Origin: Escherichia coli
Lineage (GTDB): Bacteria > Pseudomonadota > Gammaproteobacteria > Enterobacterales > Enterobacteriaceae
Direction: 5' to 3' (one strand)
DNA: 64,000 nt
Assembly (NCBI RefSeq): GCF_003334255.1
Contig: NZ_QOWU01000007.1
Shown: one piece after another, positions 33,042 through 34,105 of the stretch
Numbering within the stretch: the first letter of the stretch is position 1
Layout of the letters: each line of letters opens with the position of its first letter
Notes under the pieces: model-generated
Seen by the model: only the letters and a program-made list of their open reading frames with translations
Databases searched by the model: none
Told to the model about the DNA's origin: nothing
Position numbers and translations under genes: made by a program

Positions 33042-33208
33042 AACCCTCTCCTGAATACAGTGATGTCACTTTTTGTCATTTATGACATGCTTTGCTTGTC
33101 TGTTTTTGATCGTATTTGTAATTTATCGTCAAAAAATTGACAGCCGTCACTTTTTAAACAATTGGTGAAATTAAAATGAACGCATCCCAAAATGTTTAAG
33201 GAATGACC
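33042..33208. promoter_or_regulatory. Divergent yihU / yihV control region with repeated GTCACTTTTT motifs and a GTCATTTATGAC palindrome
   Basis: AT-rich 167-bp intergenic region. GTCACTTTTT occurs at 33065-33074 and 33146-33155; the palindrome GTCATTTATGAC lies at 33075-33086. Confidence 0.5.
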
Positions 33209-34105
33209 ATGATTCGTGTTGCTTGTGTAGGTATAACCGTGATGGATCGCATCTATTACGTGGAAGGGTTACCGACGGAGAGCGGTAAATACGTGGCGAG
33301 AAATTATACGGAAGTTGGTGGCGGGCCAGCGGCGACGGCAGCGGTTGCGGCGGCAAGGCTGGGGGCGCAGGTCGATTTTATTGGTCGCGTAGGTGATGAC
33401 GACACGGGCAACAGCCTGCTGGCAGAGCTGGAATCCTGGGGCGTTAACACCCGTTACACCAAACGGTATAACCAGGCGAAATCTTCGCAATCCGCCATCA
33501 TGGTGGATACCAAAGGCGAGCGGATAATCATTAACTACCCCAGCCCGGATCTGCTGCCTGACGCAGAGTGGTTGGAGGAAATTGATTTCTCTCAGTGGGA
33601 TGTTGTGCTGGCAGATGTACGCTGGCACGACGGCGCTAAAAAAGCCTTCACCCTGGCCCGTCAGGCGGGTGTGATGACCGTTCTGGACGGGGACATTACG
33701 CCGCAGGATATCAGTGAGCTGGTGGCATTAAGCGATCACGCGGCCTTTTCAGAACCGGGTCTGGCGCGCTTAACGGGCGTGAAAGAGATGGCCAGTGCGC
33801 TAAAACAGGCACAAACGCTCACAAATGGTCATGTCTATGTGACCCAGGGTAGCGCAGGCTGCGACTGGCTGGAAAATGGTGGGCGTCAGCATCAACCGGC
33901 CTTCAAAGTTGATGTGGTAGATACCACAGGTGCGGGTGATGTTTTTCACGGCGCTTTGGCGGTGGCGCTGGCAACAAGTGGGGATTTAGCGGAGTCAGTC
34001 CGCTTCGCCAGCGGTGTAGCGGCGTTAAAATGCACACGTCCCGGTGGACGAGCCGGGATCCCTGACTGTGATCAAACCCGATCTTTTTTGTCACTTTTTG
34101 TATAA
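33209..34105 (+). CDS. yihV: 6-deoxy-6-sulfofructose kinase (ribokinase/PfkB family)
   Basis: Track ORF trimmed to MIRVACVGITVMDRIYYV (298 aa) with the PfkB motif DTTGAGDVFHGA. Confidence 0.92.
   Translation: MIRVACVGITVMDRIYYVEGLPTESGKYVARNYTEVGGGPAATAAVAAARLGAQVDFIGRVGDDDTGNSLLAELESWGVNTRYTKRYNQAKSSQSAIMVDTKGERIIINYPSPDLLPDAEWLEEIDFSQWDVVLADVRWHDGAKKAFTLARQAGVMTVLDGDITPQDISELVALSDHAAFSEPGLARLTGVKEMASALKQAQTLTNGHVYVTQGSAGCDWLENGGRQHQPAFKVDVVDTTGAGDVFHGALAVALATSGDLAESVRFASGVAALKCTRPGGRAGIPDCDQTRSFLSLFV

Follow-up and report, generated by a model that had tools for sequence, protein, structure and literature searches.

The decamer GTCACTTTTT, which recurs at the control points of the yih cluster of Escherichia coli, is probably the best version of a ∼10-bp unit, TGTCA(Y)TTTT, that would serve as a candidate operator for the DeoR-type repressor CsqR (YihW). 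We infer that TGTCA-type units are the bases actually contacted by CsqR. Binding of CsqR to both control regions of the cluster, its release by effectors, repression, and cooperative oligomerization have previously been published. The enrichment of the decamer, its conservation, the constraint at the DNA level inside yihV, and the positions of the copies relative to mapped transcription starts come from this analysis. Earlier work had already described the regulator along with its targets, inducers, and binding regions, and the results are a modest refinement, not a new system; they add a nucleotide-level candidate for the recognition unit, phylogenetic support for it, and a unit that, jointly with the csqR promoter, constrains the final codons of yihV. 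The picture of the regulon is unchanged, but a testable nucleotide-level model of target recognition by the sulfoquinovose (SQ) repressor would help to annotate sulfoglycolysis regulons in other enterobacteria and to design SQ-responsive reporters.

The analyzed stretch of DNA (the window; 64 kb) holds the E. coli yih (sulfo-EMP) cluster, and the region is 100% identical to E. coli chromosomes. Coordinates of genes follow the RefSeq annotation of one matching strain and of K-12 MG1655, and over positions 32700-34400 the window differs from MG1655 in a single base (33062). The divergent genes yihU and yihV are separated by a spacer of 167 bp, and yihT, yihS, yihR, yihQ, yihP, yihO, and ompL follow further along on the minus strand. 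CsqR has the Pfam domains HTH_DeoR (E = 4e-23) and DeoRC (E = 2e-49), and its gene is directly downstream of the third copy of the decamer, adjacent to its targets. Features of the control regions are collected in table 1.

Table 1. Genes, decamer copies, and associated sites in the yihU-csqR region (positions in the 64-kb window)
Feature	Position	Strand	Remarks
yihU	32145-33041	-	RefSeq annotation
Copy 1 of GTCACTTTTT	33065-33074	+	First unit of the tandem TGTCA-N5-TGTCA (33064-33083)
Imperfect palindrome GTCATTTATGAC	33075-33086		5-bp arms, 2-bp center
Published ChIP-exo site of YihW/CsqR	33088-33128		Covers the weaker unit TGTCTGTTTT (33097) and the block TTTTGATCGTATTTGTAATTTAT
yihV-proximal cluster	33128-33155		Inverted repeat GTCAAAAAATTGAC (33128-33141) and an inverted pair with copy 2
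Copy 2 of GTCACTTTTT	33146-33155	+	-38 to -29 of the yihV start (33184); overlaps the -35 region
yihV	33209-34105	+	RefSeq annotation
CRP-like site	34061-34076		7 of 10 matches to consensus; upstream of the csqR promoter, near copy 3
Copy 3 of GTCACTTTTT	34090-34099	+	About -22 to -13 of the csqR start (34111/34112); abuts the -10
csqR (yihW)	34139-34924	+	DeoR-family repressor presumed to read the motif; RefSeq annotation and Pfam

The initial annotation had placed three copies of the decamer here, two in the spacer and one before csqR, and all three are present on the plus strand at exactly those coordinates. When both strands of the window were scanned, no other position carried GTCACTTTTT. 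Shuffling the window yields 0.14 expected copies, with three copies reached in none of 100 shuffles, and Markov models of order 1 to 4 predict 0.16-0.23 copies per window, 0.003 in the 1.06-kb span that holds the three, and 12-16 in a genome of 4.64 Mb. Genome-wide frequency was gauged by these Markov estimates, a sample of 200 kb from K-12, and 534 kb of orthologous flanks. In the sample of unrelated K-12 DNA (four pieces of 50 kb) there are two copies, or ∼10 per Mb, one in the fsr/ushA spacer (504703) and one inside yhbX. The annotation had asked whether the motif exceeds its background frequency, and the answer differs for the cluster and the word: clustered in 245 bp of control DNA, the three copies amount to ∼1000 times background, but the word itself also occurs in unrelated K-12 DNA and is thus not confined to this locus. 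Across 13 bp (TGTCACTTTTTGT), copies 1 and 3 agree in every base, and homology between copies stops after 10-13 bp with no longer flanking identity. A repeat element is ruled out as the identity of the decamer because the copies share no extended flanking homology, and a known RNA element is ruled out because an Rfam search of the region returned no family match at E <= 1.

Published binding data cover both regions in which the decamer lies. CsqR binds the yihU/yihV spacer and the region upstream of csqR and is released by sulfoquinovose (PMC8006165, PMC12608037, PMC8249747). The strong signal in gSELEX is a single peak in the yihUTS/yihV spacer (PMC8249747), the csqR upstream region is bound in EMSA (PMC12608037), and atomic force microscopy and behavior in gels indicate highly cooperative multi-protein complexes (PMC8006165, PMC12608037, PMC10991401). 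ChIP-exo lists eight YihW sites, of which the dominant one is at 4071641-4071681 with a signal-to-noise ratio (S/N) of 168 (PMC8464067 supplementary file 5), and calls no peak at copy 3 or the csqR promoter (PMC8464067). The numbering is that of the older U00096.2 because the glpA site fits only with a shift of ∼1978 bp from NC_000913.3; we converted it to the window through the coordinates of yihV and glpA. The same shift also puts the yihV site inside the spacer (∼33088-33128), between copies 1 and 2 and overlapping neither. Comparison with published CsqR sites, which the annotation had suggested, therefore agrees at the level of regions, as both match, but not at the level of single copies, as the ChIP-exo peak is off the decamers and copy 3 has no peak.

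Minor YihW peaks were reported at the promoters of ssuE (S/N 8.2) and glpA (S/N 13.7) (PMC8464067). TGTCA(Y)TTTT was searched for at the ssuE (NC_000913.3 ∼997548-997578) and glpA (∼2352631) peaks and is absent there; the signal-to-noise is low at both and they are uninformative as a test of the motif for this reason. The gene ssuE belongs to sulfonate-sulfur utilization, and glpA is a target of GlpR, another DeoR-family protein. A link of SQ catabolism to sulfonate use through ssuE would be interesting if true; its signal is weak. Shimada et al. 2019 (Microbiology 165:78), reportedly the primary paper for the CsqR regulon of the yih cluster, may give a nucleotide consensus for CsqR, and none is found in the published accounts at the level of fragments or peaks.

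The copies of GTCACTTTTT are located at each of the regulated promoters. The start of yihV was mapped at -25/-27 from the ATG (window ∼33182-33184; 4071737 in U00096.2), that of yihW at -27/-28 from the ATG, and several starts of yihU at -15 to -92 from the ATG (PMC5816610). A generic scan of the spacer for a sigma-70 consensus found no promoter, and these published starts were used. Relative to them, copy 2 and copy 3 are in different promoter positions (table 1), which argues for the site of a trans-acting factor and not for an element of RNA polymerase. The tandem pair that holds copy 1 overlaps the yihU starts or follows closely downstream of them. That the conserved core contains G+C argues against a simple T-tract effect.

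The two bound regions are not homologous, and an unbiased comparison of the spacer with the 110 bp upstream of csqR asks what they have in common. A 10-mer common to both occurs in 38 of 56 species, versus 2.4% of random 110-bp segments taken from these loci. The shared word is GTCACTTTTT in 32 species, and it is the sole 10-mer that links both bound regions. We also trained a 10-column matrix (consensus TGTCACTTTT) on the orthologous columns of positions 33064, 33074, 33145, and 34089. Across 128,000 positions of the window, five of the six highest scores fall within the two control regions, and a minus-strand site outside the training set, TGTCAATTTT (33133-33142), ranks fourth. Scores were lower under the published ChIP-exo site, where TGTCTGTTTT at 33097 ranks 21st and position 33117 ranks 63rd. 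An array of ten units phased at 10 bp (33097/33107/33117/33127 and 34079/34089/34099) was considered and rejected; its candidates TGATCGTATT, CGATCTTTTT, and TGTATAAAAT scored negative, and only six or seven TGTCA-type units were retained for this reason. Elsewhere in the cluster, upstream of yihQ, the yihQ-yihR spacer holds TATCAGTTTTATGAGAATCATTTTAC (28815-28850, minus strand), with two motif-like words ATCAnTTTT and a matrix rank of 37.

Conservation follows the same positions. A scan with the CsqR protein, limited to one genome per species, gave 63 usable orthologous loci in Enterobacterales (74-99% protein identity), and the divergent order of yihU and yihV-csqR is kept in all loci whose contig reaches that far. 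The 534 kb of these loci hold 99 exact copies of GTCACTTTTT, 90 of them at three homologous positions (47 at copy 2, 39 at copy 3, and 4 at copy 1), counts that are not independent events because the compared species are related. The other nine, in nine loci, share one homologous site at +3261 to +3286 from the csqR start, which, judged by this offset, should be within fabY. E. coli has no exact copy at the fabY position, and the shared position is probably a coding coincidence. Within E. coli, lineages with the long cassette that have diverged by up to 6% keep all three decamers, and polymorphisms of the spacer are found in an unconserved linker (33088-33095) and at a few other positions. A contig of 885 bp assigned to 'Bacillus coahuilensis m4-4' (NZ_ABFU01000106.1) encodes residues 52-261 of CsqR with 100% identity to that of E. 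coli, and this fragment is almost certainly E. coli contamination in that assembly.

The three copies differ in what is conserved. Across Enterobacterales, copies 2 and 3 hardly vary, as judged from an alignment of 57 spacers and a comparison of yihV 3′ ends. Copy 2 is exact in 47 of the 57 orthologous spacers and is part of a near-invariant stretch of ∼90 bp (33097-33186) that also includes TGTCTGTTTT, TTTTGATCGTATTTGTAATTTAT, GTCAAAAAATTGACA, and the conserved yihV -10 (TAAAAT, 33172-33177). With the minus-strand site TGTCAATTTT, copy 2 makes up an inverted pair, AAAATTGACA-gc-CGTCACTTTT (33133-33154), whose center bases (33143-33145) differ among species. The decamer of copy 1 is kept exactly at its position in 4 of 63 loci and its TGTCA core alone is conserved: the TGTCA at both 33064 and 33074 is invariant or nearly so among the 57 aligned sequences, and the T-runs vary. 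The palindrome that the annotation noted beside copy 1, GTCATTTATGAC, is present and adjoins it as described. In the spacer alignment, conservation of the palindrome is limited to E. coli, E. whittamii, and one Citrobacter; across species its left GTCA alone is conserved and positions 33083-33086 have low information content. As a dimer site the palindrome is rejected, since its right arm is not conserved and it is lineage-specific.

Between the decamers of the spacer, the 24-bp block TTTTGATCGTATTTGTAATTTAT (33103-33126) is essentially invariant in ∼57 Enterobacterales spacers and is kept in a short yih cassette of 66% DNA identity. It is without a TGTCA core, and both the published CsqR site from ChIP-exo and the mapped starts of yihU coincide with it. 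Its constraint may stem from the core promoter of yihU, from another factor, or from a second mode of recognition by CsqR.

At the third copy, the control region and a coding sequence overlap. Copy 3 falls among the final yihV codons, which encode ...S F L S L F V before the stop, and precedes the ATG of csqR by 40-49 bp; it is adjoined by the csqR -10 TATAAAAT (34101-34108) and is exact in 39 of 63 loci. Upstream codons of yihV vary at the third position as usual, whereas from ∼34064 to the stop every position is conserved. Third-position entropy averages 0.40 bit over the last 10 codons, the lowest in the gene, versus a gene mean of 1.31. The frozen synonymous sites at the 3′ end of yihV are a constraint at the DNA level from the csqR promoter region. 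The last 14 codons (34064-34105) embed the csqR promoter, the CRP-like site, and copy 3, and the C-terminal peptide of YihV, CDQTRSFLSLFV, is highly conserved as well. An operator or promoter that overlaps the last codons of a gene is a tidy case of dual constraint on a coding sequence and is not unusual.

A single decamer does not appear to suffice for binding. The lone exact copies in K-12 (504703 and yhbX) are absent from the eight listed ChIP-exo sites, which indicates that one GTCACTTTTT is not a sufficient site, and clustering of units appears to be required for CsqR to bind. Six or seven TGTCA(Y)TTTT units are proposed for the locus: five or six in the spacer, namely the tandem at 33064 and 33074, the weaker unit at 33097, and the GTCA/TGAC/GTCA cluster at 33128-33155, and one at the csqR promoter (34089-34098). 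When sulfoquinovose is absent, CsqR would nucleate on the units and spread cooperatively over ∼90 bp of the spacer, where it would occlude the divergent promoters of yihU and yihV. At its own promoter, CsqR would sit between the CRP site and the -10, which would give autoregulation. Binding of sulfoquinovose, SQ-glycerol, or sulforhamnose to the C-terminal sensor domain would then release CsqR.

How the published ChIP-exo site relates to the decamers is the main point on which readings diverge. The annotation had suggested that the three copies are operator half-sites for CsqR; they are indeed within CsqR-bound regions, shared between these, conserved, and at promoters, but the ChIP-exo site touches no copy and the adjacent palindrome is lineage-specific. 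One may instead suppose that the primary operator is the central block at ∼33097-33128 (TGTCTGTTTTTGATCGTATTTGTAATTTATC) and that the copies of GTCACTTTTT are auxiliary, a part of promoter architecture, or sites of a second factor. The ChIP-exo site with S/N 168 maps exactly onto this block, the block is invariant across Enterobacterales, and it is the best-retained part in the short cassette, whose regulator has the same HTH. However, the region upstream of csqR, which CsqR binds in EMSA, holds nothing that clearly corresponds to the block, and the decamer is the only word that this region shares with the spacer. The block also coincides with the cluster of mapped yihU starts and core promoters, and this could explain its conservation. 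Likewise, the midpoint of the ChIP-exo site (33108) is within 2 bp of the midpoint of copies 1 and 2 (33110), such that a symmetric multi-site complex could give the same signal. We regard a primary operator in the central block as unlikely. The two proposals can also be combined, with clusters of TGTCA(Y)TTTT in mixed orientation flanking the invariant 24-bp block, in which CsqR crosslinks in vivo, and with the unit at the end of yihV ∼940 bp off. This composite operator we hold only tentatively, as a minority possibility. Were it true, the decamers would be anchors for nucleation or looping and not the main contact, and the invariant block would either be recognized by CsqR in a second mode or be bound by a second factor. 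Copy 3 would freeze synonymous sites of yihV, and possibly residues at the C terminus of the kinase, and DNA looping could bring it to the spacer, by analogy to the deo operon.

Explanations that dispense with CsqR fare worse. The decamers could be general cis elements of transcription, either CRP half-sites (TCAC) or phased T-tracts with an UP-like or curvature effect. CRP binds both regions in vitro, and a conserved class II site is at -41.5 of the yihW promoter (PMC5816610). Copy 2 doubles as the right half of a weak match to a CRP site (7 of 10), centered at -40.5 of the yihV promoter, and a T5 tract is common to all three copies. Yet copies 1 and 3 are without the left half of a CRP site at the required spacing, and at the csqR promoter the CRP-like site is separate from the decamer (table 1). 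The distance from decamer to -10 differs between the two promoters, which makes the same polymerase contact impossible, and what stays invariant is TGTCAC, which contains G+C, and not the T-tract. We consider a role in the general machinery very improbable, and as a general identity of the decamer the CRP site (a 22-bp dyad, TGTGA-N6-TCACA) is rejected because copy 2 alone fits, and weakly. That a T-rich word recurs by chance in AT-rich promoter DNA, or that a small duplication left the copies, is hardly credible. The spacer is AT-rich and the word occurs elsewhere in K-12 at ∼10 per Mb, but three copies were reached in no shuffle and only 0.003 are expected in the span. Moreover, the positions are conserved across ∼60 species and synonymous sites are constrained at copy 3. 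The absence of flanking homology past 13 bp speaks against a duplication. TGTCA-type units read by CsqR thus continue to be our favored explanation.

The proposed organization has likenesses among repressors of the same family. E. coli DeoR acts as an oligomer on three deo operators (O1, O2, and OE), which are 16-bp palindromes, with DNA looping. Both DeoR and CsqR are DeoR-family repressors with dispersed sites, here three decamers 81 bp and ∼940 bp apart; unlike those of DeoR, the proposed units here are mostly nonpalindromic, ∼10 bp long, and in mixed orientation. Tandem operators are used by E. coli GlpR and AgaR. DeoR-type regulators use palindromes and also repeated nonpalindromic units, as in the four repeats of Lactococcus lactis FruR (PMC2222622). 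The yih locus resembles those of FruR-type repressors in that an HTH_DeoR and DeoRC protein would act on several short repeats over a promoter in response to an inducer derived from a sugar. It differs from the operators of FruR, GlpR, and AgaR in that TGTCA(Y)TTTT is unrelated in sequence and one unit is within coding sequence, at the 3′ end of a gene. Class II CRP sites (TGTGA-N6-TCACA) are similar insofar as the TCAC of copy 2 is in a 7 of 10 match near -41 of the yihV promoter, but copies 1 and 3 do not fit and the conserved word reaches well past TCAC. Descriptions of the CsqR regulon concern the same locus, the same regulator, and the same two bound regions (Shimada et al. 2019; Kaznadzey et al. 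2018; Gao et al. 2021), relative to which the decamer and TGTCA units are a finer detail than binding of fragments or peaks.

Variation among E. coli strains extends the comparison. About 1,330 of 5,426 complete E. coli genomes have only a divergent variant of the yih genes, with 66% DNA identity. In strain N63 this short cassette (NZ_CM165881.1 4784922-4794605) is beside typA and glnA and comprises genes of an MFS transporter, an alcohol dehydrogenase, an aldolase, yihU, a kinase, and a DeoR regulator that is 72% identical to CsqR overall and almost identical in its HTH. The matrix was not trained on this cassette, and its three top hits in the 9.7 kb are in the promoter of the regulator (TGTCACTTTA) and in the spacer. 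The central block is kept (GTCTGTTTTTGAnCnTATTTGTAATTTAT; GTCTGTTTTTGAGCATATTTGTAATTTAT), copy 2 has decayed to ATCACTAATT, and the yihU-proximal zone has three TGACA cores in flipped orientation. The flipped cores and the decayed copy may be linked to the lack of SQ induction that has been reported for Nissle-type strains. The proposed units would help to explain the poor SQ response of the short cassette in B2-type strains such as Nissle.

Two other repeat-like stretches of the window were observed at a distance from the control regions. The yihR-yihS spacer (29848-29984) holds a G+C-rich repeat-like stretch, CCCTCTCCCTAACCCTCTCCCCAAAGGGGCGAGGGG, which resembles the E. coli BoxC repeat and may be a copy of it. 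Downstream of ompL, GCCGGATGCGGCGTAAACGCCTTATCCGGCCTAC (23010-23075) looks like, and may be, a REP element.
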